This document shows positions 1 to 20,530 of a stretch of 32,000 bases of DNA, piece by piece. A program made the translations under genes and the position numbers. This stretch comes from an uncultured bacterium (GTDB lineage Bacteria; Babelota; Babeliae; Babelales; Babelaceae), in the NCBI GenBank assembly GCA_963824495.1, contig CAWGPQ010000006.1, forward strand, positions 10,596 to 42,595. Direction: 5' to 3'. Numbering within the stretch: the first letter of the stretch is position 1; every line of letters starts with the position of its first letter. Under the pieces are notes generated by a model that worked only from the letters and a program-made list of their open reading frames with translations, made no database searches and had not been told where the DNA came from.

Positions 1-152
1 GTTTTTTCTATGCTATACCCATTCGTCCAGCCCATTACACCAATGTACTACAAGTAACCAAGTGGATCAGGCCCGAAACAAAAGCGTTACATTATTGGGC
101 CAATAGTTGGGCTGGGCCTGGTGGAGTCGTAAAAAAACAAAATTCGCATTAA
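1..152 (+). CDS. GT32-type (DXD sugar-binding region) glycosyltransferase, 3' fragment; the gene runs off the left edge
   Basis: Frame 3 reads FFYAIPIRPAHYTNVLQVTKWIRPETKALHYWANSW... This is colinear with the C-terminal 'FFYP.P...WIRPET.A.HYW..SW' block of the downstream paralogs. TAA stop at 150-152. Confidence 0.75.
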   Translation, partial: FFYAIPIRPAHYTNVLQVTKWIRPETKALHYWANSWAGPGGVVKKQNSH

Positions 153-162
153 GGATATAGGT

Positions 163-1095
163 ATGCATTATATACCATTAGGTCTTAAGTTTACTCTTAT
201 GGTGGCCATAGCAGGTTCACCGATCGTTAGCGCAAAGCAACATGATGGCTCATTCGTTTATGTTGATTTTGATATTGCTATGAGCAATCACCTTACGCCT
301 GGTAAGCGAAGTAGTCGATTAGATTACTCAAGTAACCTAAAGCTGATCAAAATTTGCAAAAAGTTATACACAACGTATAACCCCCAACGAATGCAAGCTG
401 CTTTATCTCAACCATTAAAAATCCCTAAAATTATCCACCAAATTTGGCTAGGTGGTCCTGTTCCTGAAAAATACACTAACTATCGCCAAAGCTGGATTGA
501 TCATCATCCTGACTGGGAATATAGGCTTTGGACTGATGCTGATGTGGAGAGCTTTCAGCTTCAAAACAAAGAACTTTTTGATAAAGCTCGTAACTATGGA
601 GAAAAAGCAGATATTTTTCGTTATGAGATTCTCCATCGCTACGGTGGCCTCTACGTTGATATTGATTTCGAATGTCTTAAGCCTTTTGACGCATTACATC
701 ATTTTTACGATTTTTATGCGGGATTTGAACAAGAGGGACGCCATATGGAGCTGTGTAACGCAATTATAGGTACGTCACCCGGTAATGCCATAATCAAATT
801 ATGTAACAAGTCACTTAAAGAAGAAGGTGATTATAATGATGTCTTAAGTACCATTAAGCGAACAGGGCCCTATTACTTTACCGAATGTTTCATGAAAGCA
901 ATACAAAATTATAAAGGCAAAGCTCTGATTCTGCCCGTTAGTTTTCTCTATCCTGTTCCCATTAAACCAAAGGTTTATGTTACATTAGAAAGCGTTAAGC
1001 AGTGGATAAGGCCAGAAACTCTTGCTGTTCACTATTGGGCTGCAGGTTGGACAAAATCACCTAAATTAAGCAACTTTTATGAGGAGCACCTATGA
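163..1095 (+). CDS. GT32-type glycosyltransferase paralog 1 with N-terminal signal/anchor
   Basis: 310-aa ORF with AAGGA 8 nt upstream of the ATG. Motifs IPKIIHQIWLGG, HPDWEYRLWTD and YGGLYVDIDFECLKP (DXD) are typical of the Och1/Sur1/A4GALT-like 'Gly_transf_sug' region. Hydrophobic N-terminus ...MVAIAGSPIVSA. Confidence 0.85.
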   Translation: MHYIPLGLKFTLMVAIAGSPIVSAKQHDGSFVYVDFDIAMSNHLTPGKRSSRLDYSSNLKLIKICKKLYTTYNPQRMQAALSQPLKIPKIIHQIWLGGPVPEKYTNYRQSWIDHHPDWEYRLWTDADVESFQLQNKELFDKARNYGEKADIFRYEILHRYGGLYVDIDFECLKPFDALHHFYDFYAGFEQEGRHMELCNAIIGTSPGNAIIKLCNKSLKEEGDYNDVLSTIKRTGPYYFTECFMKAIQNYKGKALILPVSFLYPVPIKPKVYVTLESVKQWIRPETLAVHYWAAGWTKSPKLSNFYEEHL

Positions 1096-2030
1096 AGAAG
1101 CTATGTTTTTTTGTAAATTTAGTATATGTGCTCAATACACTACCGCATACCAACGATCTGCCCGAAGCTCATAGGAATTATTTACGACCATGGGTAAACT
1201 TTGAAAAATCAATGTACCACTATTTTACCACGCAAGATCAAAAGACTCCTTATTCCTCACAAGTCACTCCTGAATGGCACATCGTTAAAATGCTCTATGA
1301 GCGTAATAACCTTGGCACTATACAGCCCTCACCACAACCGAAAATTCCTAAAATCATTCACCAAATCTGGCTTGGTAGTCCATTGCCTAAACAATACAAA
1401 AAATATCAAAAAAGCTGGCGACATCACCATCCTGATTGGGAATATAAGCTTTGGACCGATGCCGATGTAGAGGCCTTCCAACTCCACAATAAAAAACTCT
1501 TTGATGAAGCAAAAAATTATGGTGAAAAATCAGACATCTTTCGTTATGAAATTTTGCACCGCTATGGCGGAGTCTATATAGATACTGATATTGAGTGTCT
1601 TAAGCCTTTTGATATTTTTCATCATTGCTACGATTTTTATGTTGGAACAACCAATCCTGGAACGCTAGAAATAAATAATGCACTTATTGGCTGTGCGCCT
1701 GGACATCCCATCATACAGCTTTGCATCGACTCACTCGGACAAGAAGATGACGCTAATAAATATAGTAATAACTATATTGTCAGCACATTTCAGCGAACTG
1801 GGCCTGCTTATTTTACAAACTGCTTTATGCAGCTAGCGGTGCAATGTGGTGGTACCGTTATAGCTTTCCCTGTGACATTCTTTTATCCCGTACCTAATCT
1901 TCTTGAAGGCTTAACAACTTTGCACAGTGTTAAAAAATGGATTAGACCTGAAACATGGTGTGTACATTATTCAGCACGAAGTTGGCAGAAGAAAGCAAAA
2001 AAATTACGATCACATCGCGGAAACTCATGA
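1092..2030 (+). CDS. GT32-type glycosyltransferase paralog 2
   Basis: 312-aa ORF. The start overlaps the upstream stop as ATGA (1092-1095). Motifs IPKIIHQIWLGS, HPDWEYKLWTD, YGGVYIDTDIECLKP. Confidence 0.85.
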   Translation: MKKLCFFVNLVYVLNTLPHTNDLPEAHRNYLRPWVNFEKSMYHYFTTQDQKTPYSSQVTPEWHIVKMLYERNNLGTIQPSPQPKIPKIIHQIWLGSPLPKQYKKYQKSWRHHHPDWEYKLWTDADVEAFQLHNKKLFDEAKNYGEKSDIFRYEILHRYGGVYIDTDIECLKPFDIFHHCYDFYVGTTNPGTLEINNALIGCAPGHPIIQLCIDSLGQEDDANKYSNNYIVSTFQRTGPAYFTNCFMQLAVQCGGTVIAFPVTFFYPVPNLLEGLTTLHSVKKWIRPETWCVHYSARSWQKKAKKLRSHRGNS

Positions 2031-2980
2031 TACACCTACAGCATACCACAATACGCACTCCATTAGTATGCGCATACCTCGGACTCACACTTGTATACTG
2101 TTGTGTAAGCGCACGCGACCATACCACCAGGAACACTGCTATGGTTGACGTTGTTGACTTTGATGTTTCAATGAGTAATCATATAACTCCCGGTGCATTG
2201 GCAAGAAACCCTTACAAACCTGAAGATTTTTCTCAATGGGAAATACTCAAAAGACTTTATATTACTTACAATCCTAACAATGTTAAGCCATCATCAGAGT
2301 TACGTATACCCAAAATTATTCACCAAATATGGCTTGGTAGCCACTTTCCTAAACACTATGAAAGATACCAAAAAAGCTGGCTTACTTATCATCCCGGCTG
2401 GCTTTATAAACTTTGGACTGACGCAGATGTTAAAAACTTTACCTGGTCCAACCAAAACAGCAAAAAGCTCTTTGACGATGCCCAAAATTACGGCGAAAAA
2501 TCTGATATTTTACGCTATGAGCTTCTCTATCGTTATGGCGGGCTCTACGTCGATGTTGATTTTGAGTGTCTCAAGCCTCTTGATGACTTACATTACTGCT
2601 ACGATGTATATGTTGGTATTGAGCAAGCTCAGCGATTAGAAATTAATAACGCGCTTATTGGCGCAGCACCTGAACATCCATTTCTTAAATTTTGCATCGA
2701 ATCGTTACGAGATCAAGGATCAAAGCGAGACTTCATGGCAATCATGCAACGCTCTGGTCCTGTATTCTTTACCAAGTGCTTTATGCATTGTATCGCATTA
2801 TACGAGGATAGCATGTTTGCCTTCCCTGTAAGCTACTTTTACCCCATACCTATAAAAACAGGAGCATATCATACGCTTAATCAGGTGGCTAACTACATAC
2901 AACCTGAAACGTATGCAGTTCATTACTGGAATTCAAGCTGGACATTACCAAGTGGCTTTGTAAAAGGATCGAAGAAGTAA
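2027..2980 (+). CDS. GT32-type glycosyltransferase paralog 3
   Basis: Track ORF 1955-2980. I place the start at the in-frame ATG at 2027, which forms an ATGA overlap with the upstream stop (2027-2030). That gives a signal-like N-terminus MIHLQHTTIRTPLVCAYLGLTLVYCCVSA. Motifs IPKIIHQIWLGS, HPGWLYKLWTD, YGGLYVDVDFECLKP. Confidence 0.8.
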   Translation: MIHLQHTTIRTPLVCAYLGLTLVYCCVSARDHTTRNTAMVDVVDFDVSMSNHITPGALARNPYKPEDFSQWEILKRLYITYNPNNVKPSSELRIPKIIHQIWLGSHFPKHYERYQKSWLTYHPGWLYKLWTDADVKNFTWSNQNSKKLFDDAQNYGEKSDILRYELLYRYGGLYVDVDFECLKPLDDLHYCYDVYVGIEQAQRLEINNALIGAAPEHPFLKFCIESLRDQGSKRDFMAIMQRSGPVFFTKCFMHCIALYEDSMFAFPVSYFYPIPIKTGAYHTLNQVANYIQPETYAVHYWNSSWTLPSGFVKGSKK

Positions 2981-2983
2981 TTT

Positions 2984-3829
2984 ATGCTCTGTGTCACCCT
3001 TATCTTTTGTATGCTCGGCTTAATCCAGCCTATACTGCTCTGTGCCGATTTTAATACTTCAGACTTTGAATCTCTTAAAGACAACTATAACTATATCTAT
3101 AAGCACAATAGTTCTAGTTCTTTACAAGTGCGCATACCCAAGATTATTCACCAAATATGGCTTGGCAGTCCCTTGCCGAAACGTTTTAAAAAGTATCAAA
3201 AAAGCTGGCTTATACATCACCCTGGCTGGCGCTATAAACTCTGGACTGATGCTGATATTAAAAACTTTACCTGGTCCAACCAAAAGAGTAAAAAGCTCTT
3301 TGACGATGCCCAAAATTACGGCGAAAAATCCGATATTTTACGCTATGAGCTTCTCTATCGTTATGGTGGGCTCTATATCGATGTCGATTTCGAATGCCTC
3401 AAGCCTTTTGACAATCTACATTGTTGCTATGATTTCTATACAGGCATATCTAACACAGCATCACTCGAGCTTAATAACGCGCTTATAGGCTCTGCTGCCG
3501 GTCACCCTATTATGAAACGTTGTATAGAAGATCTTGAAGATACAGGCTCAAAAACCGACCTTATGGCTATTATTGAGCGTACTGGTCCCTTATACTTTAC
3601 ACGCTGCTTTCTTAATTATGCCCAAGAAGCAGATAAAAAAATGCACGAAAAAATAATAGCTTTTCCGCAGAGCTTCTTTTACCCAATACCTAATACTATT
3701 TCTAAAATATGCACGCATGATGAGCTCGAGCATTGGCGCCAACCGGAAAGCTATGCAGCTCACTATTGGGCATGCAGTTGGCAAAAACCTTCCGCTTTTA
3801 TATCAAAAAAAAGGAATATCTTATCATGA
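2984..3829 (+). CDS. GT32-type glycosyltransferase paralog 4
   Basis: 281-aa ORF starting 3 nt after the upstream stop. Hydrophobic N-terminus MLCVTLIFCMLGLIQPILLCA. Motifs IPKIIHQIWLGS, HPGWRYKLWTD, YGGLYIDVDFECLKP. Confidence 0.85.
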   Translation: MLCVTLIFCMLGLIQPILLCADFNTSDFESLKDNYNYIYKHNSSSSLQVRIPKIIHQIWLGSPLPKRFKKYQKSWLIHHPGWRYKLWTDADIKNFTWSNQKSKKLFDDAQNYGEKSDILRYELLYRYGGLYIDVDFECLKPFDNLHCCYDFYTGISNTASLELNNALIGSAAGHPIMKRCIEDLEDTGSKTDLMAIIERTGPLYFTRCFLNYAQEADKKMHEKIIAFPQSFFYPIPNTISKICTHDELEHWRQPESYAAHYWACSWQKPSAFISKKRNILS

Positions 3830-4713
3830 AGAATTATGGACCTTTTATCACACTCTGTTGTATGGTACTTTTAGCGTATACCCATGAAATTGCACAGGCT
3901 AGGCCACGAGTAAGCATTATAACATCGGTTAAATTTGGCGGTGACTTTATCAAGGGATTCATGGAAGATATTACACGTCAGACTATCTTTGATGACTGTG
4001 AACTTATTATGATTAATGCTGATTCCCCTGATAATGAAGAAGATACTATTAAAGAGTATGTGAAACGCTATCCCAATATTATTTACAAAAAACTTTCCTA
4101 TGATCCCGGCCTGTATGGCGTTTGGAATTTAGCAATCAGCATGTCAAAAGCAAACTTTATTACGAACGCCAATCTTGACGATAGGCTTGCCCCCCATTCA
4201 CTTGAATATCGAGCTCGAGAACTTGAGAATAATCCACAAGCTGATCTGGTCTATTCAAATGCATACGTTACCTACAAACCGAATGCAACATTTGAAGATC
4301 CTGCCGTCGCATGGGTATGGGTAAAGGAAGAATTTTCCCGATCAGCAATGTTCCATTGCCTACCAGGAAGCTATCCTATGTGGCGCACATCATTACATAC
4401 AAAAGCTGGCCTCTTTAATGCAGCATTTAAGCATTCTGGTGATTATGAAATGTGGTTACGAGCTGTAAGCAAGGGATGTGTATTTAAAAAATTGCCAGAG
4501 GTTACTGGTCTTTATTACTTTAACCCCAAGGGTTTATCAACTAATCCAGCATATAAGAAAGCAGAAGTTGAAACTGCTCTTCTACGACAAAAATACAGTT
4601 ATTTCTGGGAACCGCCAAAGAAACAGTCCCCTAAAAAGCCATCCAAGCAAAAGCCTATTAAGCAGAGCAATAATCACCCTATAAGTTTACGCTTTTCTGC
4701 TAAGAAGACGTGA
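3826..4713 (+). CDS. GT2-family (GT-A fold) glycosyltransferase with signal/anchor and a Lys/Pro-rich C-terminal tail
   Basis: Track ORF 3733-4713. I use the ATG at 3826 (ATGA overlap with the paralog 4 stop; AAGGAA upstream). N-terminus MKNYGPFITLCCMVLLAYTHEIAQA. Then VSIITSV...ELIMINADSPDNEEDTI...NANLDDR, a typical GT2 nucleotide-sugar binding core. Tail PPKKQSPKKPSKQKPIKQ. Confidence 0.75.
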   Translation: MKNYGPFITLCCMVLLAYTHEIAQARPRVSIITSVKFGGDFIKGFMEDITRQTIFDDCELIMINADSPDNEEDTIKEYVKRYPNIIYKKLSYDPGLYGVWNLAISMSKANFITNANLDDRLAPHSLEYRARELENNPQADLVYSNAYVTYKPNATFEDPAVAWVWVKEEFSRSAMFHCLPGSYPMWRTSLHTKAGLFNAAFKHSGDYEMWLRAVSKGCVFKKLPEVTGLYYFNPKGLSTNPAYKKAEVETALLRQKYSYFWEPPKKQSPKKPSKQKPIKQSNNHPISLRFSAKKT

Positions 4714-5658
4714 ACCCCAATCAATATCCCAAATATCTAAATCAGCAAAATGCTTTCGCCCGTACTGGTTAAACCATGAAAGTATCTGCTTTTCCCGCCA
4801 GCGCTCTGCACTGGCAAAGACTTTTGGTGCAAAAAATGTATAACCTTCAAACCAAGCTCGAGGGGCAGGCTCAAGATGAATATCCCGTTCATCCTTGCTA
4901 GGGGCATATCTTTTGTTAATTGCACGAGCTGATTTTTTTGGATCACGTATGCGTTCTAGGCAACGATACCATGCTTGTTTAACCAATAGATTGCGCCAAT
5001 TAACAAACTGAAAGTGTATAAGACCATGCGTATATCCCTCAATAACGTGTCGTTTGCCATTAAGAAAATTTGGTACACGTGACGTATGAATAAAACCAGA
5101 ATCATAGCGTGCTTTTGTATCATCACAAAAGATAATATCTTTGTAATTCCACGTCCAAACAGACCCATCAAATCGATAATAATCAATGCTGCGCCATAAA
5201 TGAATCCAATTAACCATCAGAATATCACCTGGCTTTAGGCTCAGGATACGTTTTCTTAAGAACTGCTGATCGAGGCAATTAGAGGTAAACATCTCATCAG
5301 CATCAATAACGATAAAATGAGTTCCTCCAAGCTTACGCCCTGCTTGCAATAAAGCGTTTCTATCGCCCGGTTCGTCACGATACCAATGAGACTTAGTGAT
5401 AACATGCTTTACTTTACAGTCTTTAGCACATCTCTTAACAATCTTCACCGTATTATCAGTTGATGCATCATCCAAAACAACGATAGCGTCAGCATACAAA
5501 GCGAGAGCTTTTAAACTCTGCTCAATAATTGGTGCTTCGTTTCTCACCGGCATAAGGCCAATAATTTTGGCAGCCGACGCTTTTACTCGAGTAAAAGCTT
5601 GAACATTCATAGCACCCATCCAACAAGACAAGAAAAAAATTAAGAATATATGCCCCAT
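4687..5658 (-). CDS. GT2-family glycosyltransferase with signal/anchor
   Basis: Track ORF 4687-5682 begins at a GTG. The ATG at 5658 is preceded by AAAGGAG. N-terminus MGHIFLIFFLSCWMGAMNVQA. Then GLMPVRNEAPIIEQSL...VVLDDASTDNT...FIVIDADEMF (GT2 DxD-type core). The 3' end overlaps the convergent GT2 by 27 bp. Confidence 0.75.
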   Translation of the reverse strand: MGHIFLIFFLSCWMGAMNVQAFTRVKASAAKIIGLMPVRNEAPIIEQSLKALALYADAIVVLDDASTDNTVKIVKRCAKDCKVKHVITKSHWYRDEPGDRNALLQAGRKLGGTHFIVIDADEMFTSNCLDQQFLRKRILSLKPGDILMVNWIHLWRSIDYYRFDGSVWTWNYKDIIFCDDTKARYDSGFIHTSRVPNFLNGKRHVIEGYTHGLIHFQFVNWRNLLVKQAWYRCLERIRDPKKSARAINKRYAPSKDERDIHLEPAPRAWFEGYTFFAPKVFASAERWREKQILSWFNQYGRKHFADLDIWDIDWGSRLLSRKA

Positions 5659-5808
5659 AACTTTAGCTCCTTTCTTTATCACATGATTATGTTAAAAAGA
5701 TAAAATATCCTTTAGCACATCGTCAACCTATCAACCTAAGAATTTGACACTTCAGTGTGATTTGTGGTTTTCTAAAAAAAATTATCTAATAAGAAGAGGA
5801 AAAAAGAT

Positions 5809-6753
5809 ATGGAGCACATACAAAAGATTACGTCAGGCATTCAGCGTTATGTCATACTGTTGTTTATAGTACTTGAGTTGTTTAGTGTTACACATGTACG
5901 GGCAGCTTGGGTCGACTTTGATCAAGCGATGGGAAAACATCTTAAGATTAACCCAATGGTCCCTCTGGACGAATATCAAAGAAGAAAGCAATTTTATAAA
6001 GCACTTTATAATAAAAATAATTTAGCAAAAGTTAAACCTCAAAACAACCCCAAAATACCCAAAATCATTCATCAAATCTGGCTTGGAAGTCCTTTTCCTG
6101 AAAAATTTAAGCCACTGCAAGAAACCTGGATTACAAAACATCCAAGTTGGAAGTATATTTTATGGACTGACGAATCGGCCAAGCAACTTAAGCTGTGGCA
6201 CAAAACATGGTTTAAAAAAATTAAGAATCTAGGATTTAAGGCTGACCTATTACGCTGCGAAATACTTTACCAGTATGGCGGACTCTATATTGATGTTGAC
6301 TTTGAATGCGTAAAGTCATTTGACCTATTACATCATTGCTACGATTTTTATGCTGGTTTGCCTCGTAATCAAACTGATATGGATATCGCTAATGGTTTAA
6401 TTGGTTCTAGAGCAGGACATCCTATTTTAAAAAATTACTTAAAGACTGTTGGCGTGCATCTTGAAAAATACTTTAAGACTCATTCTCGGCAAACAAATGA
6501 TCTTATGAACGTTGTTGGATCCCCTGCCTTATCCAATTCTGTACGAAAAGTAACTAAACTTAACGATCCAACAAGTATCACCGTCATTTTTCCCGTGAGT
6601 TTCTTTTACCCGTGGTTTCATATGTATGGTATTGAAGCCAAGCATTGGCAAGGAGCACTTGGTATACACAAGCGCAAAGATATTTATCGTATCCTTAAAC
6701 CTGAATCGTTTGCACTTCATTACTGGGGAGGGACCTGGGAAAACAGCTGGTAA
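5809..6753 (+). CDS. GT32-type glycosyltransferase paralog 6 (more divergent)
   Basis: 314-aa ORF with AGAGGA upstream. IPKIIHQIWLGSPFP, HPSWKYILWTD, YGGLYIDVDFECVKS. Hydrophobic segment YVILLFIVLELFSVTHVRA. Confidence 0.85.
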   Translation: MEHIQKITSGIQRYVILLFIVLELFSVTHVRAAWVDFDQAMGKHLKINPMVPLDEYQRRKQFYKALYNKNNLAKVKPQNNPKIPKIIHQIWLGSPFPEKFKPLQETWITKHPSWKYILWTDESAKQLKLWHKTWFKKIKNLGFKADLLRCEILYQYGGLYIDVDFECVKSFDLLHHCYDFYAGLPRNQTDMDIANGLIGSRAGHPILKNYLKTVGVHLEKYFKTHSRQTNDLMNVVGSPALSNSVRKVTKLNDPTSITVIFPVSFFYPWFHMYGIEAKHWQGALGIHKRKDIYRILKPESFALHYWGGTWENSW

Positions 6754-6812: not shown

Positions 6813-8186
6813 ATGATAGTAACGATTAATACACCAAACATATCCATAACAAGCATATTACTCTTACTAGTCTTTTCTATAGCATATACACTTCAGCCAA
6901 TCCCTCCTCTACCTCAACCTTTTGATAACACACTAAGACGTTCCGATACTCCTGCCATCATTACTTATAAAGCTATTGATTTGGTCAATAAATTTAGATT
7001 GGATATAATGGCTAAGTACATTTATGCAAAGCATAGAGAAATGAACGTAAAAAGTGATTGGGGTCTGCGAGTATACAGCGAGCATCTTCATGTTTGGAAT
7101 AATTACTACGAAGCAAGTAATCCTGCCAAGAACAGCCTTAGTGCATATCTTAGAGCATTTCACAAAACACTTGATTCAGTAAAAGCCCAGGGATTTTCAG
7201 CAACTACATCACTTGTTCCATTAGGCCTGCGATCTATCGATGATGGTGCGCATAGAGTAACTGCGTGCTTACTCTATAACAAAGATGTACTTTGCAAGCA
7301 AACTGATAATCCAGGACACGATGCTTCATCACACTTTTTTAGAAATAAGCGAGATTACGTTCCAACCGGTCTTGCTGAAAAATATCTTGACGCAATGGCA
7401 TTAACCTATTGTGAACTCAAGGAAAATACTGCTATCGTTGTAATTTTCCCTCGGGCTATTAAAGACAATCAACGAATTAAAAAAATACTCCAAAACTATA
7501 TGCATAGCATATATGAAAAAGAGATTACGCTGAAAGCTTCAGGTCCCCGTAATTTTATTAGGAACTATCTGGAAGCCTCCAGCAAAGTAAACCAATGCTT
7601 TACTCAGAACCGTACTCATTCGTGGACTATTCATGTATTTCTTGTTGAAATACTTAACCAATCACTTATGCAGAAAGCCAAACAAGAAATTAATGACGCT
7701 CTCGGTATTTCGCAAGCAGTGCATGTAACAGATGGTCATGATGACACTCTAAAATTAGCACGGGCTGTTTTTAACCAAAATAGTATACATTTTCTTAATA
7801 ATGCCAACTCTAAAGATTTTAAAAACTTCAATGATTTTTTTACTATTTATAAAAACTGGCTTGATAGAAACTCTTTTGATAAAGAGTGCTTTTGCATAAC
7901 TGGTGATGCTGTACTGGCAGCATATGGTATACGTGACTGTCAACAACTTGGTTTTATACATCACGGTTACAATAACCAATGCTCGATCGAAATAAGCTCA
8001 ATAACTGACAACAATAGCGATGCTTATTATCGTACAATGAGTAAAGACAACATACTATTTAACCCAGAAAATTATTTTTATTATCGTGATATAAAATGTG
8101 CTGCTTTGCATGTCGTTAGAAACATGAAAGCCCGACAGACCAACTTCCGATATTTTCAACCTTATGGAGACCCTCAAGAGGGATAA
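6813..8186 (+). CDS. Hypothetical 457-aa protein, N-terminal TM/signal segment, possible ParB/sulfiredoxin-like 'DGxHR' motif
   Basis: Long ORF with GAGGAAAATTACG before the ATG. N-terminus ISITSILLLLVFSIAYT. Motif SIDDGAHRVTACLL resembles the ParB/Srx-fold DGxHR signature. I recognise no family for the rest. It sits between glycosyltransferases and the flippase. Confidence 0.55.
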   Translation: MIVTINTPNISITSILLLLVFSIAYTLQPIPPLPQPFDNTLRRSDTPAIITYKAIDLVNKFRLDIMAKYIYAKHREMNVKSDWGLRVYSEHLHVWNNYYEASNPAKNSLSAYLRAFHKTLDSVKAQGFSATTSLVPLGLRSIDDGAHRVTACLLYNKDVLCKQTDNPGHDASSHFFRNKRDYVPTGLAEKYLDAMALTYCELKENTAIVVIFPRAIKDNQRIKKILQNYMHSIYEKEITLKASGPRNFIRNYLEASSKVNQCFTQNRTHSWTIHVFLVEILNQSLMQKAKQEINDALGISQAVHVTDGHDDTLKLARAVFNQNSIHFLNNANSKDFKNFNDFFTIYKNWLDRNSFDKECFCITGDAVLAAYGIRDCQQLGFIHHGYNNQCSIEISSITDNNSDAYYRTMSKDNILFNPENYFYYRDIKCAALHVVRNMKARQTNFRYFQPYGDPQEG

Positions 8187-8260: not shown

Positions 8261-9577
8261 ATGGGTATTACAAAGCCTGCTTGTGCTCGATATTTTCACA
8301 TACATGATAGCGTAAAAAAATTTGCTATTTACTGCTTGAGCTCAGCAGTACTCAAAAGCACGTCTGTTATGTTACTGCCTCTCACGCTCCACACATTAAA
8401 CCCTCAAGATATGGGTATTCTTTCGCTTGCCAATAGCTTTATAAGTATTGTCTCAGTACTTATGGGATGTGGTTTACGCCAGGTATTCTGGCTCGATTTT
8501 TTTCACCTCAATCAGCACAATCGTAATGAGCTGCTTGTCGATATTATAGCAGTTTATTGCGTACTCAGTCTTACAAGCATGCTCCTATTAATACTCAACA
8601 TAAGTTTTATTAATAGCTATATTTTTTTACTAAGTGCTTCACCTTTACTTATCATGCTCATTCTTACAATCTGCTTTTTCAGTTTTTTTGCTGAATTATT
8701 ATATCAAGTGCTTATATATCAGGGGCAAGCATGGGCGCTATCACTTGTTCAGCTTGCTGCCACTCTTATTTCAACAAGTACTATCCTTATAAGTCTACGC
8801 TATTTCGCTGGAGGTGTGATGCTCATTCTTATGGCAAACTTGCTCGGTACGCTTTTCGTGTCGATCATTGCTCTTGGGCTATTTCTCAAAACATCACTTA
8901 TTAGCTATTATAGCATTGGTCGATTACGCACAAGTTTTTTTTCATATATCAAGCGTGGACTGCCCTTTATACCCTCGGTATTGAGCGGATGGATACTAGC
9001 ATCAAGTAACCGATGGATGCTTGCTCATTATACTTCGCTCGCTGATGTTGGTGTCTATTCTCTTACAGAAATGCTCACAAGCATTTTTCAGGTTTGTATT
9101 CTTTACCCAATCAGCGGAGCATATTTACCCTCCCTCATGCAAGCTTTTGCTCAACACCCCAATAATATACATAACATCGACGCCTATAACAAAAAAATTA
9201 TGGCTACAAGCATGCTTGGCTTGAGCACAGGTGCCTGCTTGGGCTTTGTTGTAGGAAAAAGCTTACTATACCACTTTTTACCAAAAGCTTATTATCAAGC
9301 AATACCCTATCTTCTTATTACTGCGCTGGGCAATATATTTCTTATGGGTACGTATTTTAGCTCATGTAGTATTCAATTCTATAAAAGAACTACTTTTTTA
9401 GCTGGATCGTTAACATCCTCTGCAATGCTTACCCTTACACTGAGCGCTCTGCTTATCCCCCGGTACGGCTTGGGGGGTTCAGTAATTTCGCTTACATCGG
9501 CCTATACAGGTTATTTTTTTATAACGCTTGCATATAACCAATGGCTCCACATAGAAAATAAAAATTACTATATATAA
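8261..9577 (+). CDS. Wzx-like polysaccharide/oligosaccharide flippase (MOP superfamily) membrane protein
   Basis: 438-aa ORF that is hydrophobic throughout, with about 12 predicted TM stretches by eye. The N-terminal pattern (K.STSVMLLPLTLHTLNPQDMGILSLANSF) and its location in a sugar locus fit Wzx-type transporters. Confidence 0.6.
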   Translation: MGITKPACARYFHIHDSVKKFAIYCLSSAVLKSTSVMLLPLTLHTLNPQDMGILSLANSFISIVSVLMGCGLRQVFWLDFFHLNQHNRNELLVDIIAVYCVLSLTSMLLLILNISFINSYIFLLSASPLLIMLILTICFFSFFAELLYQVLIYQGQAWALSLVQLAATLISTSTILISLRYFAGGVMLILMANLLGTLFVSIIALGLFLKTSLISYYSIGRLRTSFFSYIKRGLPFIPSVLSGWILASSNRWMLAHYTSLADVGVYSLTEMLTSIFQVCILYPISGAYLPSLMQAFAQHPNNIHNIDAYNKKIMATSMLGLSTGACLGFVVGKSLLYHFLPKAYYQAIPYLLITALGNIFLMGTYFSSCSIQFYKRTTFLAGSLTSSAMLTLTLSALLIPRYGLGGSVISLTSAYTGYFFITLAYNQWLHIENKNYYI

Positions 9578-9660: not shown

Positions 9661-10299
9661 ATGAAAAATATACGTATTGCCTTAGGCATCGCAATTCTTA
9701 CAAGTTTTAGTCAGTATTGTAGCGCTTATACCTGGAATGTAATAAATCTGACTGGTCAATCTGCAAACATTAAAATTAAGCCTGCATGTGTGGGAGAGGG
9801 TCCTTGGTCAAACGTGCCACCTTCGCCCGACTTGAAGCATCCTGTGAGAGTTCCCTTAAAGGCTCAGGAGGGTTGCTGTATTGCTGGTGTACAAGTAGAT
9901 GGAAAAGATGTTGATCTTAGGGCAATAACGAATGATCAATTGGCTAAGCTTATGTATATCTCTCCACTCCTGGGCATTGGAGGCGCTACTGCCGGTGCCA
10001 CTGCTGAGATTGTAGCTGGCTTTACGGCTGGAGCTGGTGTAGCAAGTGCAGCTGCCCCTATTGTAGCTGCAGTTCCTCCTATCGCAATAGGAGCAGCCCT
10101 AGCCGTAGTGGGAGCGGGAGCAGCAATTGGCATAACTGAAGCCATCGATAGATGCAAGAGCCGTGATCTTGTTGTAGGAACCGATGGTGCCTATCTGGTA
10201 ATAGAATCAGCTGAGGCAGTGGCTCACAAGGCAGTAAGCGAAACTCGTGAGTTTTTTGGGAAAATGAGAGGAAAGGTTCAAAGCCTTTTTCATGAATAA
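9661..10299 (+). CDS. Secreted Gly/Ala-rich protein, tandem family member 1 (long C-terminal variant)
   Basis: AAAGGAG RBS. Signal peptide MKNIRIALGIAILTSFSQYCSA, then YTWNVINLTG, CCIAGVQVDG, a variable G/A/P-rich hydrophobic tract, GITEAIDRCKSRDLVVGTDGAYLVIE, and the tail SAEAVAHKAVSETREFFGKMRGKVQSLFHE. Confidence 0.8.
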   Translation: MKNIRIALGIAILTSFSQYCSAYTWNVINLTGQSANIKIKPACVGEGPWSNVPPSPDLKHPVRVPLKAQEGCCIAGVQVDGKDVDLRAITNDQLAKLMYISPLLGIGGATAGATAEIVAGFTAGAGVASAAAPIVAAVPPIAIGAALAVVGAGAAIGITEAIDRCKSRDLVVGTDGAYLVIESAEAVAHKAVSETREFFGKMRGKVQSLFHE

Positions 10300-10756
10300 A
10301 CTAGAGTTCCCGCTCAGACCTATGACGAGATATTAAAGAAACGTGGAATTCACTGGCAATAGAGGCACTTCTAGCTGCCGCAGGCATAGGTACAGCATTT
10401 GGCATAACAGAGGCCATTGATAGGTGCAAAAGCCGTGATCTTATTATAGCAAGTGACGGTTGCCTATCTTGCGGTAGAAAAGAAACAAGAACAGGACCAA
10501 GGAACTGAATAATTACGATTAGATAAATCTTAAAAAAATAATATTTTACTATTATTTAGCTAAATTAAAACTTATTATTGCAGTTCAGCATAAATATTTG
10601 TTATTGTAGTATTAAGTAAATCAAAATAAAAGAAGGAAAGTAAAATGAAAAATACACGTATTGCTTTAGGTATCATAATTCTCACAGGTTTTAGTCAGTA
10701 TTGTAGCGCTTATACTTGGAATGTAATAAATCTGACTGGTCACCCTGCAACTATTA
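10120..10756 (+). repeat. Direct repeat copy A (637 bp, 100% identical to 11140-11776)
   Basis: Base-by-base comparison of the two blocks. The first mismatches are at 10119/11139 and 10757/11777. The repeat spans the 3' end of member 1, the relic, the AT-rich spacer and the first 112 nt of member 2. Confidence 0.95.
10326..10512 (+). pseudogene. Frameshifted 3' relic of a family member (short 'VVEKKQE' C-terminal type), copy 1
   Basis: No start codon. Reads ...IEALLAAAGIGTAFGITEAIDRCKSRDLIIASDG. An extra T at about 10461 then shifts the frame. The corrected frame gives AYLAVEKKQEQDQGTE*, matching the ends of members 3 and 4. Confidence 0.7.
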
Positions 10757-11319
10757 CGATTAAGCTTGTAGGATGCAAGGGCGACGGCATTTCGCAGCAA
10801 GTTCCACCCGCTGATTTGAAACATCCTAGTGGGAAAGCCTTTACCCCAACCAAAGAATACCAGCAAGTTTGCTGCATTGCTGGCGTACAAGTTAATGGAC
10901 ACGATATACCCTTTAAAGCACTAACGGACGAGCAGTTCGAAAAGCTAAAAACCGTCACGTTACCCGCAGGTTTGCTTGGTGGTGCAGCAGTTGGTGGTCC
11001 TGCTATTATCAGCGGTCTTTCTGTGCTTACCGGTGCGACTGCTGCGGCTGCAGTTGGACTTTCGGGTATTGAAACTGCAACTACGTTTGTAGCACCACCG
11101 GTTGCGATAGCAGGGGCTCTTGTCCTGGCAGGCGCAGGGGCAGCAATTGGCATAACTGAAGCCATCGATAGATGCAAGAGCCGTGATCTTGTTGTAGGAA
11201 CCGATGGTGCCTATCTGGTAATAGAATCAGCTGAGGCAGTGGCTCACAAGGCAGTAAGCGAAACTCGTGAGTTTTTTGGGAAAATGAGAGGAAAGGTTCA
11301 AAGCCTTTTTCATGAATAA
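10645..11319 (+). CDS. Secreted Gly/Ala-rich protein, tandem family member 2 (long C-terminal variant)
   Basis: AGAAGGAAAG RBS. Same signal peptide/YTWNVINLTG head and an identical 3' module to member 1. The unique variable core is 10757-11139. Confidence 0.8.
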   Translation: MKNTRIALGIIILTGFSQYCSAYTWNVINLTGHPATITIKLVGCKGDGISQQVPPADLKHPSGKAFTPTKEYQQVCCIAGVQVNGHDIPFKALTDEQFEKLKTVTLPAGLLGGAAVGGPAIISGLSVLTGATAAAAVGLSGIETATTFVAPPVAIAGALVLAGAGAAIGITEAIDRCKSRDLVVGTDGAYLVIESAEAVAHKAVSETREFFGKMRGKVQSLFHE

Positions 11320-11776
11320 ACTAGAGTTCCCGCTCAGACCTATGACGAGATATTAAAGAAACGTGGAATTCACTGGCAATAGAGGCACTTCTAGCTGCCG
11401 CAGGCATAGGTACAGCATTTGGCATAACAGAGGCCATTGATAGGTGCAAAAGCCGTGATCTTATTATAGCAAGTGACGGTTGCCTATCTTGCGGTAGAAA
11501 AGAAACAAGAACAGGACCAAGGAACTGAATAATTACGATTAGATAAATCTTAAAAAAATAATATTTTACTATTATTTAGCTAAATTAAAACTTATTATTG
11601 CAGTTCAGCATAAATATTTGTTATTGTAGTATTAAGTAAATCAAAATAAAAGAAGGAAAGTAAAATGAAAAATACACGTATTGCTTTAGGTATCATAATT
11701 CTCACAGGTTTTAGTCAGTATTGTAGCGCTTATACTTGGAATGTAATAAATCTGACTGGTCACCCTGCAACTATTA
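11140..11776 (+). repeat. Direct repeat copy B (637 bp, 100% identical to 10120-10756)
   Basis: See copy A. This copy spans the 3' end of member 2, relic copy 2, the spacer and the 5' end of member 3. Confidence 0.95.
11346..11532 (+). pseudogene. Frameshifted 3' relic of a family member, copy 2
   Basis: Identical to 10326-10512 because it lies inside the 637-bp repeat. Confidence 0.7.
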
Positions 11777-12189
11777 AAATTAAGCTTGCAGGGTGCAAGG
11801 GCGACGGAATTTCAAATCCTGATTCACCTCACAAGAACCCTATACCACCTTCACCTGATTTGAAGCATGCTGTAAAGATCCCCTTCACCGCAGAAAAAAG
11901 GTACCAAAAAAATTGTTGCATCGCGGGAGTCCAAGTTAATGGAAAAGATGTTCACTTTAGTGCCATATCAAAAGAGCAATTTCGCTTAGTCCCATCTATC
12001 TCTGGCCCAACCTCATTTGTTGCTGGTGTTGCAGCGGAGGCAGAGGCGGCAGCGATTCCATTAGCGACTGCGGGCGTAGGCGCAGCATTTGGCATAACAG
12101 AGGCCATTGATAGGTGCAAAAGCCGTGATTTAATTGTCGCAACTGATGGTGCCTATCTTGTGGTAGAAAAGAAACAAGAAGCTGCCTAA
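11665..12189 (+). CDS. Secreted Gly/Ala-rich protein, tandem family member 3 (short C-terminal variant)
   Basis: The 5' 112 nt are identical to member 2. YTWNVINLTG, CCIAGVQVNG, GITEAIDRCKSRDLIVATDGAYLVVEKKQEAA*. Confidence 0.8.
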   Translation: MKNTRIALGIIILTGFSQYCSAYTWNVINLTGHPATIKIKLAGCKGDGISNPDSPHKNPIPPSPDLKHAVKIPFTAEKRYQKNCCIAGVQVNGKDVHFSAISKEQFRLVPSISGPTSFVAGVAAEAEAAAIPLATAGVGAAFGITEAIDRCKSRDLIVATDGAYLVVEKKQEAA

Positions 12190-12229
12190 TATTGGGAACA
12201 AAAACTGAATAACTTAAAAGGTTAATACG

Positions 12230-12814
12230 ATGAAGATAAACTTATTAATGACGCTCGTCATCGCAACTCTTATAGGTTTTAGTCATTACTGTAGCGCTTA
12301 TACTTGGAACGTAATAAACCTAACGGGTATACCTTTAAATATTAAGATTAAGCTTGATCGATGTAAGGGCGAAAATCCTTGGAAAAACGTTCAGCCTTCA
12401 TCGCTAGCTAATCCAAAGGGGATTCTTATAACTCCAAGTAAACCATACCAACAAGGTTGCTGTATTGCTGGTGTACAAATAGGTATACCAGAAAAAGGCA
12501 CAAATACGATAAGGTGGAAAGACATTGAGTTTAAGGCTATATCACATGATCAATTGACTAGGGTCATGGCTTTACCTGGGGGTATTACTGGAGCCACAAC
12601 TATTGCAGGTCCAATAGAACTTGCAGCACTAGCTGAAATACCTGTTGCAGCTGCCGCTTTACCTGTAGCTATGCTAGGGACACTCCTATTTGCTGCAGGC
12701 GCAGGCGCAGCATTCGGCATAACAGAAGCAATTGATAGATGCAAAAGCCGTGATCTTATCGTCGCAAGTGATGGTGCCTATCTTGTTGTAGAAAAGAAGC
12801 AAGAAGCTGAATAA
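12230..12814 (+). CDS. Secreted Gly/Ala-rich protein, tandem family member 4 (short C-terminal variant)
   Basis: Signal peptide MKINLLMTLVIATLIGFSHYCSA, YTWNVINLTG, CCIAGVQIG, G/A-rich hydrophobic tract, GITEAIDRCKSRDLIVASDGAYLVVEKKQEAE*. Confidence 0.8.
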   Translation: MKINLLMTLVIATLIGFSHYCSAYTWNVINLTGIPLNIKIKLDRCKGENPWKNVQPSSLANPKGILITPSKPYQQGCCIAGVQIGIPEKGTNTIRWKDIEFKAISHDQLTRVMALPGGITGATTIAGPIELAALAEIPVAAAALPVAMLGTLLFAAGAGAAFGITEAIDRCKSRDLIVASDGAYLVVEKKQEAE

Positions 12815-17927: not shown

Positions 17928-19169
17928 CTAGTACTGCAGTACTTCTAATTGACTAGCAGAAAATAGCGAACTATATAGTGTCATAAGCCTATCAAGCTCA
18001 GTCTCGATTCTTGGAAGGTCAAGCTCTGTACTTGCATATCGCCCTTCGTTATTGGCAAATAATGGATCGCGAAGCTTTTGTATGTCCTCTGTAGCTATAC
18101 TAAGAACGCAAAAGTGTCTGAGACCTAATTGTTGGCTTATGGTCCAAAATGTCTCATCCAAGTGATATTGAAAGATTTCAATAACCATAGTCCCAGGACG
18201 AGCAAATAGTAGATTGGTAAGTCCTGCCCCATGAGCTGCAATAATTAAATCCGCATGAGCAAAAATCTGAGCTTGTTCTTGTATCGAGTAATCTTCAAGT
18301 ATAATTGGCTGAATACCATAAGTATCTTTTAAAAGATTGACGAACGTAAGTTCGTTAGCAATTTTTCTTAATGGCGCGTTTTTCCGGGAGATAAAAATTT
18401 TATTAAAATTAGAGCACTTTTGCGTATTGATTTGCGTATTGACATGATTATTCAAAAAAGAATCCCTTAAAAACTTAATAACCCAATAGGGTGACACCGT
18501 CGAAAAAGAGGGAACAGAGGGAATAATTAAGAGATCGGGCTCAATACACGTTTCGTCGTTTCCTTCTAGTATTTGATCCGTAGTTATTCCCAAAGCATAC
18601 AGACTATCTTTTTGAAACGTATACTTAAGCTCCGGTACGTAAATATAGTCATAGCTTATATTTTCTTGCTCAAGTAGAGCAACGCGTGGTAGGATCTCTG
18701 TCATCCAGTGATAATAATTTCCTGACCCCGATTGCGCTATCACAGCTACACTACCCTTAATTTTTTTAGCGACTGGTAAAGCTAGATCTCTGCTAAAGAG
18801 GGGTTTAGTGAGATCTTCCCAATCCCATATTGTGTCAAGAAAGAATTTTTTCTTTCTATGTTCCTCCAGTAATATATAGCCCTGGTTTCCGAAAACTTGT
18901 GCATTTTCTAAGCTTATTATAAATGTTTCGGGGAAAACACCCTCAATATCAGCGGGAGATCTATCGTCTAAAATAACTTCTCTATCAAGGGGGAATGCAA
19001 GATAACGAAAATATTTTCTCTCATTAAGCAATCGATATTCTTTTGAACAAGGGATAAGCTGGTTTACAGAAAGAAAAAGTGAGTTAGGATTAAGCTTAAG
19101 CAATCGTGGATATCCCCAGCTATTGCTAAAACATACTACCATAACAATCATTAACCAGACTGGTATCAC
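17928..19169 (-). CDS. GT61/DUF563-like glycosyltransferase (EOGT/xylosyltransferase-like) with N-terminal signal/anchor
   Basis: 413-aa ORF (GTG start, GAGGCGGA upstream). N-terminus MIPVWLMIVMVVCFSNSWG. NYYHWMTEILPR and AAHGAGLTNLLFARPGT resemble GT61 family signatures. Confidence 0.6.
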   Translation of the reverse strand: MIPVWLMIVMVVCFSNSWGYPRLLKLNPNSLFLSVNQLIPCSKEYRLLNERKYFRYLAFPLDREVILDDRSPADIEGVFPETFIISLENAQVFGNQGYILLEEHRKKKFFLDTIWDWEDLTKPLFSRDLALPVAKKIKGSVAVIAQSGSGNYYHWMTEILPRVALLEQENISYDYIYVPELKYTFQKDSLYALGITTDQILEGNDETCIEPDLLIIPSVPSFSTVSPYWVIKFLRDSFLNNHVNTQINTQKCSNFNKIFISRKNAPLRKIANELTFVNLLKDTYGIQPIILEDYSIQEQAQIFAHADLIIAAHGAGLTNLLFARPGTMVIEIFQYHLDETFWTISQQLGLRHFCVLSIATEDIQKLRDPLFANNEGRYASTELDLPRIETELDRLMTLYSSLFSASQLEVLQY

Positions 19170-19513: not shown

Positions 19514-20530
19514 TTATGCCTTTTTATCTTTACATACAGCAACACCGCCAAGCAAACCATACCAGAGTAGTATGAAGAACAGTAGGTGTACCACGCTATA
19601 TGCAAATGTAATGCTTTTAATAGCTAGCAAAAGAGCATACAAGCCTAAGATAGCTGTTGCGCCTATAGTATAGAGCACGATAGAAGATTTAGACCAGCCA
19701 TTCTGCTGCAAATATATAGAAAAGTGGTCGGGACTACCGTAATAAAAGGGAATATCTTTATAGAAGCGTATGAGTACAAGTGTCCCTACTTCAAGAAAAG
19801 GAATCAAGGCTATATATGAAGGTGCAGCGTAGCCATAGCTCGTATACGTAGCCCATGGAATACTTATTGATATACCGGCTAACAGTCCTCCTATATATAA
19901 CGATCCAGCATCGCCAAGATGTATACAGGCCGGCGGATAATTAAACCATAGAAACCCCATTAATGCCCCAATAAAAGCAGCAAGCACAATAGCTAATGGA
20001 ACATTGTTAAATAGAAGGGCACCAATAAGAAGATAGAAAGCATTACATGCAGCTAAAGCTGTTGCAAGACCATCCATAACGTCAACTAAGTTATAGGCAT
20101 TTATAAGTGATACCATCCAAAAAAGCACAAGCAGAACGATACCACTCTGAGCTATCCCTGTTTGGCTCATCAAAAAACTTACCGTTGCGATTACCTGGCC
20201 TAAAAATTTTTGATAAGGTTTTAAAACGTATAGATCGTCAATAAGACCGAGAAGAAGTAACGCTGTCGCATAGTACCAGAGCGTACAAAGATTTTGCGAG
20301 AGAGAGAGAGTTCTACTGCAAACGAGAAGTATTAGTGAAAATGTGAAAGCGCCATGAACAGCAATGCCTCCCAAATAGGGAACTGCTCGTGTATGTCTTT
20401 TAAGATATCCGTCAGGTATATCCAGGATATTAAGCCTATGTGCTAGACGAGCACAGATTGGTACAAGAGCTCCAGCACCTACTAAGCCACCAAAGCTGGC
20501 TAGAACTATGATGCTCTCAGAATCACCCAT
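19514..20530 (-). CDS. Polyprenyl-phosphate HexNAc-1-phosphate transferase (WecA/WbpL-like, MraY superfamily)
   Basis: AGGAAAG RBS. Starts 12 nt after the infB stop. Polytopic membrane protein with LGLIDDLYVLKPYQK, NAYNLVDVMDGLA and HLGDAGSLYIGG motifs. No MraY-type HHH(F)E motif. Confidence 0.75.
   Translation of the reverse strand: MGDSESIIVLASFGGLVGAGALVPICARLAHRLNILDIPDGYLKRHTRAVPYLGGIAVHGAFTFSLILLVCSRTLSLSQNLCTLWYYATALLLLGLIDDLYVLKPYQKFLGQVIATVSFLMSQTGIAQSGIVLLVLFWMVSLINAYNLVDVMDGLATALAACNAFYLLIGALLFNNVPLAIVLAAFIGALMGFLWFNYPPACIHLGDAGSLYIGGLLAGISISIPWATYTSYGYAAPSYIALIPFLEVGTLVLIRFYKDIPFYYGSPDHFSIYLQQNGWSKSSIVLYTIGATAILGLYALLLAIKSITFAYSVVHLLFFILLWYGLLGGVAVCKDKKA

Follow-up and report, generated by a model that had tools for sequence, protein, structure and literature searches.

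An anciently conserved set of six GT32 glycosyltransferase genes in a probable glycan-assembly cluster of a Babeliales bacterium

Glycosyltransferase family 32 (GT32, PF04488), which includes yeast Och1 and Sur1/Csg1 and human A4GALT and A4GNT, is a known enzyme family, and runs of glycosyltransferase genes in glycan loci are ordinary. The family lies in a GT-A fold space common to Och1-type glycan builders and to the glycosyltransferases of toxins and effectors, among them Legionella SetA, whose DXD motif (D134/D136) binds Mg2+ and UDP-Glc (PMC13037854). Here we analyze an array of six GT32 genes at the start of a 32,000-nucleotide stretch of DNA (contig CAWGPQ010000006.1, positions 10,596 to 42,595), which as a whole is called the window below. 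Judged by its aspartyl-tRNA synthetase (AspRS), which is 65-70% identical to proteins of Candidatus Dependentiae, Babeliaceae and Babela massiliensis, the host is a Babeliales (Dependentiae/TM6) bacterium, an obligate intracellular parasite of protists, a context that a preliminary description of this DNA had missed. GC content, gene content and the top GT32 matches had at first pointed to a chlamydial origin, a reading that the AspRS homologs set aside. The phylum Dependentiae is widespread, consists of protist parasites and has hardly been cultured.

We consider it probable that the locus is a Babeliales glycan-assembly cluster, every GT32 paralog having a step of its own and the whole building a defined multi-sugar glycoconjugate. 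The array and the GT2 genes associated with it are as follows.

3..152, plus strand: last 49 codons of GT32 copy 0, which opens the run and has 299 aa when complete
163..1095, plus strand: GT32 copy 1, 310 aa (PF04488 E 6e-17), signal-peptide-like N-terminus (...IVSA/KQ, cleavage at the slash), DXD at D166/D168
1092..2030, plus strand: GT32 copy 2, 312 aa (PF04488 E 6.6e-17), ATGA overlap with copy 1
2027..2980, plus strand: GT32 copy 3, 317 aa (PF04488 E 2e-15), ATGA overlap with copy 2
2984..3829, plus strand: GT32 copy 4, 281 aa (PF04488 E 8.5e-18, Gb3_synth E 6e-7), start 3 nt past copy 3
3826..4713, plus strand: GT2a, a GT2 glycosyltransferase of 295 aa (PF00535 E 3e-13), ATGA overlap with copy 4, signal-peptide-like N-terminus (...AQA/RP)
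4687..5682, minus strand: GT2b, a GT2 glycosyltransferase of 331 aa (PF00535 E 1.5e-11, PF13704 E 3.4e-10), signal-peptide-like N-terminus
5809..6753, plus strand: GT32 copy 5, 314 aa (PF04488 E 2e-16), of a divergent lineage and opening a second plus-strand unit

The preliminary description had counted at least six GT32-type DXD genes, and the open reading frames (ORFs), the PF04488 matches and the tail of copy 0 bear this out. Frame 3 of bases 3-152 reads FFYAIPIRP...WIRPETKALHYWANSW and aligns with the C-termini of the other copies; the complete gene occupies positions 350-1249 of a 3.6-kb public Logan contig that is identical to the window start (L078; comparison loci carry L numbers), and copy 0 carries PF04488 among the precomputed matches. 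Because a gene on the opposite strand precedes copy 0 in L078, the run begins at copy 0 and the GT32 total is six. The junctions reported earlier were all recovered in the sequence, namely ATGA overlaps at 1092-1095, 2027-2030 and 3826-3829 and a 3-nt gap at 2981-2983, and the copy 0 stop (150-152) lies 10 nt before the copy 1 ATG at 163. Most starts are preceded by Shine-Dalgarno-like motifs; for copy 3 a longer ORF from 1955 exists, and the ATG at 2027 was chosen for its ATGA overlap and signal-peptide-like N-terminus. The notion of one coupled operon holds for the tight coupling of five GT32 genes into GT2a, which we infer to be expressed as an operon, but not for the gene at 5809, which is outside the coupled run, the minus-strand GT2b lying in between, convergent with GT2a (27-nt 3' overlap) and divergent from copy 5.

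Decay of some copies, envisaged in the same description, was not found: all six ORFs are intact, as are the DXD and the other donor-site residues in 6/6 copies, none is a pseudogene, and all six keep the motifs IPKIIHQIWLG, WxYxLWTD and (S/A)DxxRxxxLxxxGGxYxDxDxEC. The GT32/Gly_transf_sug call, which had been left to profile searches, stands, with Pfam placing all copies in PF04488; the five complete ones score 57.7-65.3 bits against a cutoff of 23 (E 2e-15 to 8.5e-18), and a 49%-identical homolog (P0099) is named 'glycosyltransferase family 32 protein' by NCBI. Weaker local matches to PF12919 (TcdA_TcdB), spanning only profile positions 1-40/56 and ~169-194 of 382, and to PF05704 (Caps_synth) were also obtained, together with LifA/Efa1 motif matches.

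D166 and D168 are invariant across 73 family members. When a profile of these 73 members was run against solved structures, the closest was the SetA glucosyltransferase domain (E 6e-20), whose D134/D136 aligns with D166/D168 of the window, followed by yeast Och1 (9n3s, E 2e-14) and by Vibrio and Photorhabdus toxin domains, YeGT, lymphostatin and TcdA/TcdB (E ~1e-9 to 1e-12). The AlphaFold2 model of copy 1 (predicted local distance difference test, pLDDT, 90) starts at its N-terminus with a helix and continues through a linker of low confidence and a region of three helices into the GT-A core, and a Foldseek search with it returned the same relatives (SetA E 2e-10; Och1 9n3s E 1.3e-9; YeGT, PaTox and TcdB). 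That a host-targeting effector, SetA, is the nearest solved structure had been overlooked in the preliminary description. Predicted structures of giant viruses beat every PDB entry in this fold match (E 2e-19 to 1e-15, TM score ~0.55-0.6). A nucleotide-sugar donor site of the DXD/divalent-cation type on a GT-A fold is predicted, and family membership alone would make the enzymes probably retaining, forming alpha-linkages. The conserved Cys pair C171/C214 was considered as a disulfide marker of export and is not decisive, as the cytosolic effector SetA shares the Cys after the DXD.

Scanning genomes at one per species yielded 437 relatives. The 80 strongest matches, from 77 loci, were taken for analysis, and even the best reach only 43-47% identity; in a protein search, over 1,300 cluster representatives passed E <= 1e-10. 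The records of the named relatives are almost all metagenome-assembled genomes (MAGs) of Chlamydiota and Dependentiae/Babeliales, a few being labelled Verrucomicrobia or Pseudomonadota. The proteins apparently form a new, Dependentiae/Chlamydiota-specific GT32 subfamily; literature searches on the family in Dependentiae or Chlamydiae gave nothing relevant. Among the labels, L004, L022, L024 and L069 read Pseudomonadota/Hyphomicrobiales and L009, L019, L052 and L077 read Verrucomicrobia; some of those MAGs carry Dependentiae- or Chlamydiales-like GT32 neighbourhoods, and the labels may be wrong. A conserved triplet of longer (~360-390 aa) GT32-like genes was also noticed in Chlamydiales-type MAGs (L049, L052, L053, L057, L058, L066, L067, L072 and L077), in most cases beside the gene for an ABC exporter whose membrane and ATPase domains are fused; it looks like a different conserved array.

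The history of the array depends on which relatives are compared. Against species representatives only, the run copies are each other's nearest relatives (49-61% identity) and group together in 36/50 bootstraps, which would make the run a lineage-specific monophyletic amplification. This was overturned once two contigs holding the closest relatives of the array were added to the tree, the grouping then falling to 0/100. One is a metagenomic contig (L079) with at least five GT32 copies directly 3' of WecB, WecC, an oxidoreductase and an epimerase/dehydratase; the other, a metagenomic Babeliales contig (L080), has five GT32 copies with WecB and WecC upstream and a sulfotransferase, a GT2 and a flippase homolog downstream. 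The copies of the window pair by position with those of L080:

Window copy 0 (W0) with L080 B1: bootstrap 51-59%
Window copy 1 (W1) with L080 B2: bootstrap 92-94%
Window copy 2 (W2) with L080 B3: bootstrap 57-67%
Window copy 3 (W3) with L080 B4: bootstrap 81-98%

Since the AspRS proteins of L080 and the window are only 68% identical, this positional pairing means that the ordered array is older than a deep split and that every position has been retained over the long term. The deep tandem amplification of the preliminary description therefore fails as a recent in-situ event, the array being old and paired copy by copy with L080; what is recent is a short conversion tract of ~250-300 nt:

2303..2602, plus strand: gene-conversion tract in copy 3, covering the donor-binding core with the DXD
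3131..3430, plus strand: its partner in copy 4

Over these 300 nt, copies 3 and 4 are 86% identical at the nucleotide level, and their fraction of identical codons is 0.73-0.90 in the tract vs ~0.45 elsewhere. The two are sisters in 18% of bootstraps, a figure that drops to 1% once the tract is removed, so their apparent closeness is due to the tract. Overall identity among the run copies is 45-58%.

The sixth copy (5809) had been counted as a member of the same amplification; it is 36-39% identical to the others and groups with them in 0/50 bootstraps, and on these sequence comparisons it is of separate descent, not a close paralog of the other five. The locus had also been called unusual for a compact bacterial locus, which is right in degree, six being the top of the observed range, but arrays of three to five recur in relatives. 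Per species-representative locus (±10 kb, n=77), one GT32 copy is found in 54, two in 12 and three in 11. The nearest singleton relative, sister of the array clade, is the GT32 gene of L020, which sits in a GT32-GT2b-ORF457 module (ORF457 is described below), and GT32-GT2b pairs recur in L007, L014 and L038; these observations suggest that the array grew from such a module. The five-plus-one paralog set, anciently conserved, is new.

Taken together, the six non-redundant GT32 enzymes would build one glycoconjugate jointly with the two GT2 enzymes, ORF457 and a MOP-type flippase. Each GT32 paralog combines the common donor core with its own N-terminal helical region and C-terminal third, so that the paralogs most likely differ in the acceptor that they recognise or the linkage that they form. 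The diversification of acceptor specificity proposed in the preliminary description fits this arrangement of a conserved donor core between variable N- and C-terminal thirds. The five coupled genes and GT2a would be read from one transcript at fixed stoichiometry, and the array would have arisen by duplication from the single GT32 of a GT32-GT2b-ORF457 module in the ancestor of a Babeliales sub-lineage, its order being kept since. The data show the gene structure, the family, the intact motifs, the fold, the positional orthology, the conserved neighbourhood and the export-type N-termini; from these we infer a retaining mechanism, the assignment of one step to each paralog, expression as an operon, what the product is and where the enzymes act.

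The compartment is raised by the N-termini, whose topology was assessed by heuristics (hydrophobic run, flank charge and positive-inside rule) and not by a dedicated predictor. Of the family members with complete N-termini, 88/103 (85%) carry an N-terminal hydrophobic segment, with a median uncharged run of 18 aa and a mean N-flank charge of +2.8, and in 90% of the segment-bearing members the N-flank is more positive than the C-flank; the same test on AspRS as a control gave 0/119. Within the window, such a segment is encoded by every GT32, GT2 and GT61 gene and by ORF457 but by none of the housekeeping genes, and AXA-like cleavage sites can be read (VSA/K, VSA/R, LCA/D, VRA/A, AQA/R and VQA/F). 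By the positive-inside rule, the catalytic domains are predicted to be exported or anchored in an N-in/C-out orientation. The preliminary description, which spoke of soluble domains, had missed the export-type N-terminus present on every window copy, given which cytoplasmic soluble domains would not be the obvious reading. A re-entrant, PglC-like helix, which would keep the enzymes cytoplasmic, was rejected by inspection, the runs being short (median 18 aa) and having no conserved Ser-Pro break.

Signal-type N-termini are likewise found in related loci on sulfotransferases and on GT6, GT10, GT77-like and GT47-like enzymes. UDP-glucose dehydrogenase (UGDH) and GDP-mannose 4,6-dehydratase (GMD) are normally expected to be cytoplasmic, and yet their homologs beside GT32 genes carry signal-peptide-like extensions (e.g. 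MFRRIVIVQFLFLSMFLNAQSD-RVVTIIGTGYVGL), the sequence of which varies while the signal-peptide character is kept. The UGDH and GMD homologs with an extension are:

L024 11728-13209
L027 12656-14176
L031 10953-12479
L051 10983-12476
L065 11837-13336
L007 7778-9010
L008 8733-9905
L025 2237-3466
L028 12040-12828

Some of these extensions may be mis-called starts, an internal MKKKVALITG start being present in the L007 GMD. Systematic export-type N-termini across the whole toolkit, as predicted here, are new. The L024 gene set is common to L027, L031, L051 and L065.

Further genes of the window have glycan-related features, some of them beside the array and others more distant.

6813..8186, plus strand: ORF457, 457 aa, with an N-terminal anchor, a DGAHR (ParB/Srx-like, sulfiredoxin) motif and a weakly NDK-like middle domain
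8261..9577, plus strand: MOP/Wzx-type flippase-like membrane protein, 438 aa (PF01943 29.1 vs 28.2 bits; NCBIfam HfsF E 6e-9)
17928..19169, minus strand: GT61-family glycosyltransferase (PF04577 E 2e-27), hydrophobic N-terminus
19514..20530, minus strand: polyprenyl-phosphate sugar-1-phosphate transferase of the MraY/WecA (GT4-family) type (PF00953 E 2e-27)

ORF457 gave no match in Pfam, NCBIfam or PDB sequence searches. Its AlphaFold2 model (pLDDT 90) has a weak NDK-like middle domain as its sole fold match (best PDB E 4e-3), and its family of ~124 members extends over Dependentiae, Bacillaceae and cyanobacteria, some members carrying a fused GT2 or FkbM methyltransferase domain. In L020 a homolog comes after GT32-GT2b, and we regard ORF457 as a conserved partner of GT32-GT2b and, going by the model, a putative nucleotide-binding-like protein. 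The flippase homolog downstream of the five-copy array in L080 matches that of the window at E 1e-87. The GT61 possibly belongs to the same glycosylation system, the link being loose. The PF00953 protein, which scores below the MraY and WecA equivalog cut-offs and lies 10 kb away, is a candidate initiating enzyme and could instead be the MraY-like enzyme of the cell.

In relatives, GT2b homologs directly adjoin a GT32 gene in L007, L014, L020 and L038 and lie elsewhere in the locus in L044. Counted over 80 loci, the recurrent GT32 neighbours are an unannotated GT-A-like family (22), an ABC exporter (12), GMD/epimerases (10), Sulfotransfer_1 (9), UDP-glucose dehydrogenase (9), GT2b (6), GT77-like proteins (6), GT10 fucosyltransferase (5), GT6 (4) and GT47/RXYLT1-like proteins (4), plus NTP-transferases. 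The GT32 loci are glycan-building neighbourhoods and not typical effector islands. The commonest neighbour, a family of ~300 aa with a signal anchor and GT-A-like motifs (...SYNN/SFNRP..., DD), comprises L048 3549-4484 and another 47 genes, spread over 22 loci (e.g. L004 2867-7052 and L008 10835-13554), often in tandem runs of 3-4, and has no Pfam or PDB sequence match.

Other genes of the window were noted in passing. Directly 3' of the flippase, at 9661-12814, stand four tandem paralogs (212, 224, 174 and 194 aa) with no Pfam match, each with a signal peptide, an invariant YTWNVINLTG (N-x-T sequon), CCIAGVQV, an Ala/Gly-rich hydrophobic stretch and a GITEAIDRCKSRDL C-terminal module, of which extra degenerate copies lie in the gaps 10378-10521 and 11398-11541; these NVINLTG paralogs could be surface proteins or glycosylation substrates. 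Signal peptides are also borne by an unannotated Cys-rich protein of 254 aa (26183-26947, minus strand), a weak Fringe-like, GT31-type protein (27242-28057, minus strand) and a small ankyrin-like protein (28321-28656, minus strand). GT61 and Fringe are mostly eukaryotic Golgi/ER families. Finally, a 704-aa protein at 14676-16790 (minus strand), with a clear signal peptide and no Pfam match, may be an outer-membrane protein.

The assembly of one glycan by the whole cluster is supported by the glycan genes that neighbour GT32 here and in relatives (GT2b, ORF457, Wzx, UDP-sugar dehydrogenase, GMD/epimerase, NTP-transferase, sulfotransferase, GT10, GT6, and the GT77-like and GT47-like families). 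Several points weigh against it. No Wzy polymerase, WaaL ligase or oligosaccharyltransferase was found among the ORFs of the 32-kb window (Pfam, NCBIfam). Babeliales are reported to lack most lipopolysaccharide (LPS) genes and waaL (PMC4776705); for Chromulinavorax, a complete absence of LPS genes is reported, along with signal peptides on many putative effectors, ankyrin proteins among them (PMC6561590). The N-in/C-out topology predicted from the N-termini would be unfit for a classical assembly on undecaprenyl phosphate at the cytoplasmic face, SetA, the nearest relative of solved structure, is an effector that modifies host proteins, the Wzx call barely passes the Pfam threshold (29.1 vs 28.2), and a promoter and terminator scan of the window, which bears on operon status, gave nothing above shuffled expectation. 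Assembly of this classical kind would suit the flippase and the nucleotide-sugar genes, but it is at odds with the predicted topology and with the absence of LPS and WaaL reported for the lineage. It is possible, though we lean the other way, that the same assembly takes place in another compartment, as an extracytoplasmic, 'Golgi-like' glycosylation in which GT32 and the rest of the toolkit, Sec-exported or anchored, act in the periplasm, at the cell surface or in a host compartment with nucleotide sugars taken from the host; a primer brought across by the MOP flippase might be what they extend. The hydrophobic, positively N-flanked termini of 88/103 family members vs 0/119 AspRS argue for it, as do the segments and AXA-like sites on all GT32, GT2 and GT61 proteins and ORF457 of the window and not on its housekeeping genes, the signal-peptide-like extensions even of UDP-glucose dehydrogenase and GDP-mannose dehydratase in related loci, the signal peptides reported on Dependentiae effectors such as ankyrin proteins (PMC6561590) and the precedent of the Chlamydia inclusion lumen, where synthesis from nucleotide sugars proceeds outside the bacterial cell (PMC4829429). 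However, this topology was derived by heuristics, a wrongly called start could account for some extensions (MKKKVALITG in the L007 GMD), nucleotide sugars, NAD(P) and 3'-phosphoadenosine 5'-phosphosulfate (PAPS) are not known to be available in the bacterial periplasm, and the flippase with a polyprenyl-phosphate transferase nearby has the look of a normal cytoplasmic pathway. In its broadest form, which the N-termini make conceivable and which we hold only tentatively, Babeliales and many environmental Chlamydiota might export a whole eukaryote-style toolkit (GT32 arrays, GT2, GT61, GT10, GT6, GT77-like and GT47-like enzymes, sulfotransferases, even UGDH/GMD), building or remodelling glycans outside their own cytoplasm, at the surface or in a host compartment, from host nucleotide sugars, NAD(P) and PAPS, with the six-member GT32 set as the core in an LPS-less energy parasite.

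Alternatively, the paralogs might be an arsenal of secreted effectors that glycosylate different host proteins, such as small GTPases, as SetA, Lgt, TcdB and PaTox do. SetA (profile E 6e-20; Foldseek 2e-10) and toxin glycosyltransferase domains are indeed the best PDB matches, PF12919 and LifA/Efa1 motifs are matched, the subfamily occurs, among named records, almost only in obligate intracellular lineages (Chlamydiota, Dependentiae), the N-termini are of the export type, and ankyrin genes lie nearby in L080 and L076. Yet these are single-domain proteins of ~300 aa that lack the helical subdomains and the membrane-targeting or translocation domains of the toxins, the PF12919 matches cover only ~40 and ~25 of 382 profile positions, and Och1, a glycan builder, matches about equally well. 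The coupling to GT2 genes and the neighbouring nucleotide-sugar synthesis, sulfotransferase, fucosyltransferase and flippase genes point instead to glycan building, and five paralogs kept strictly in place speak more for a pathway than for fast-evolving effectors; we consider an effector arsenal unlikely. A recent redundant amplification, or a set of decaying copies with no functional differentiation, could draw on the 300 nt shared by copies 3 and 4 at 86% nucleotide identity, but that likeness is the product of local conversion; overall the copies are no more than 45-58% identical, no ORF or motif is damaged, and positional orthologs exist in another lineage. The chance of such an origin is minute, and recent redundant amplification or pseudogenisation is excluded. 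We therefore retain the assembly of a defined glycoconjugate as the best explanation.

As a conserved, ordered set, the six GT32 genes and their partners would mark a defined glycan in which these cells invest and which might form the surface layer facing the host. Should the export-type N-termini prove genuine, the bacteria would carry out nucleotide-sugar-dependent glycosylation outside their own cytoplasm and at the cost of the host, a mode for which, to our knowledge, glycogen in the Chlamydia inclusion is so far the sole documented case; the locus would also provide a mechanistic link to giant viruses and to effectors of the SetA/TcdB type. The array is also a natural series for mapping the determinants of acceptor specificity in GT32, a family with very few solved structures.

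Compared with known systems, the window copies share with the GT32/PF04488 enzymes (yeast Och1, Sur1/Csg1; human A4GALT, A4GNT) the IPKxIHxxW, DxxR and GGxYxDxD motifs and the GT-A fold, and with the eukaryotic members an N-terminal hydrophobic anchor followed by a linker and then the catalytic domain. They differ from Och1 in being bacterial (Babeliales) and only ~16% identical over the fold alignment, and from the GT32 family in having a conserved helical region of ~50 aa (VxFDxSM...W...K.LY) before the Rossmann core and in forming a conserved five-gene array. Predicted GT32-like proteins from giant viruses of protists (Klosneuvirinae, Marseilleviridae, Fadolivirus, Pithovirus and Pandoravirus) resemble them in fold, at 22-26% identity, and in having protist hosts; these proteins are viral, mostly uncharacterised, and many are fused to other domains.

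The SetA glucosyltransferase domain (PDB 8x4j/8x4k/8x4m) is 25% identical over ~207 columns and shares the DXD, the flanking donor-site residues and the Cys three residues after the DXD. SetA is, however, a 644-aa type IV effector without a signal peptide that has a C-terminal domain binding phosphatidylinositol 3-phosphate and glucosylates Rab1, whereas the window GT32 proteins, of ~300 aa, have a Sec-type N-terminus, lack a targeting domain and are encoded in a glycan gene cluster. No delivery or targeting module was found in them by Pfam or in the model: they are single-domain proteins with a Sec-type N-terminal segment and no C-terminal domain. With the GT44 toxins (TcdA/TcdB, TcsL, TcnA; also PaTox, YeGT and lymphostatin) they have in common the W of IHxxW, DxxR and Y/GG-x-Y-x-DxD, at profile E values of ~1e-9 to 1e-10 and a Foldseek probability of 1.0. 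The toxin domain of ~540 aa differs in its N-terminal four-helix bundle and helical insertions, which are absent here (TM score ~0.4), and a full-length GT44 match including the helical subdomains was not obtained, PF12919 being matched in short stretches by proteins of ~300 vs ~540 aa.

Finally, the cluster can be compared with Wzx-dependent polysaccharide and O-antigen clusters. No Wzy, chain-length regulator, WaaL or oligosaccharyltransferase is found in the window, and the lineage is reported to be without LPS. Like those clusters, the locus combines a coupled run of glycosyltransferase genes with a MOP flippase, and nucleotide-sugar genes adjoin the orthologous arrays; a candidate initiating polyprenyl-phosphate sugar-phosphate transferase lies nearby. 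Unlike the soluble or peripheral cytoplasmic enzymes of such clusters, the glycosyltransferases of the window have export-type N-termini.

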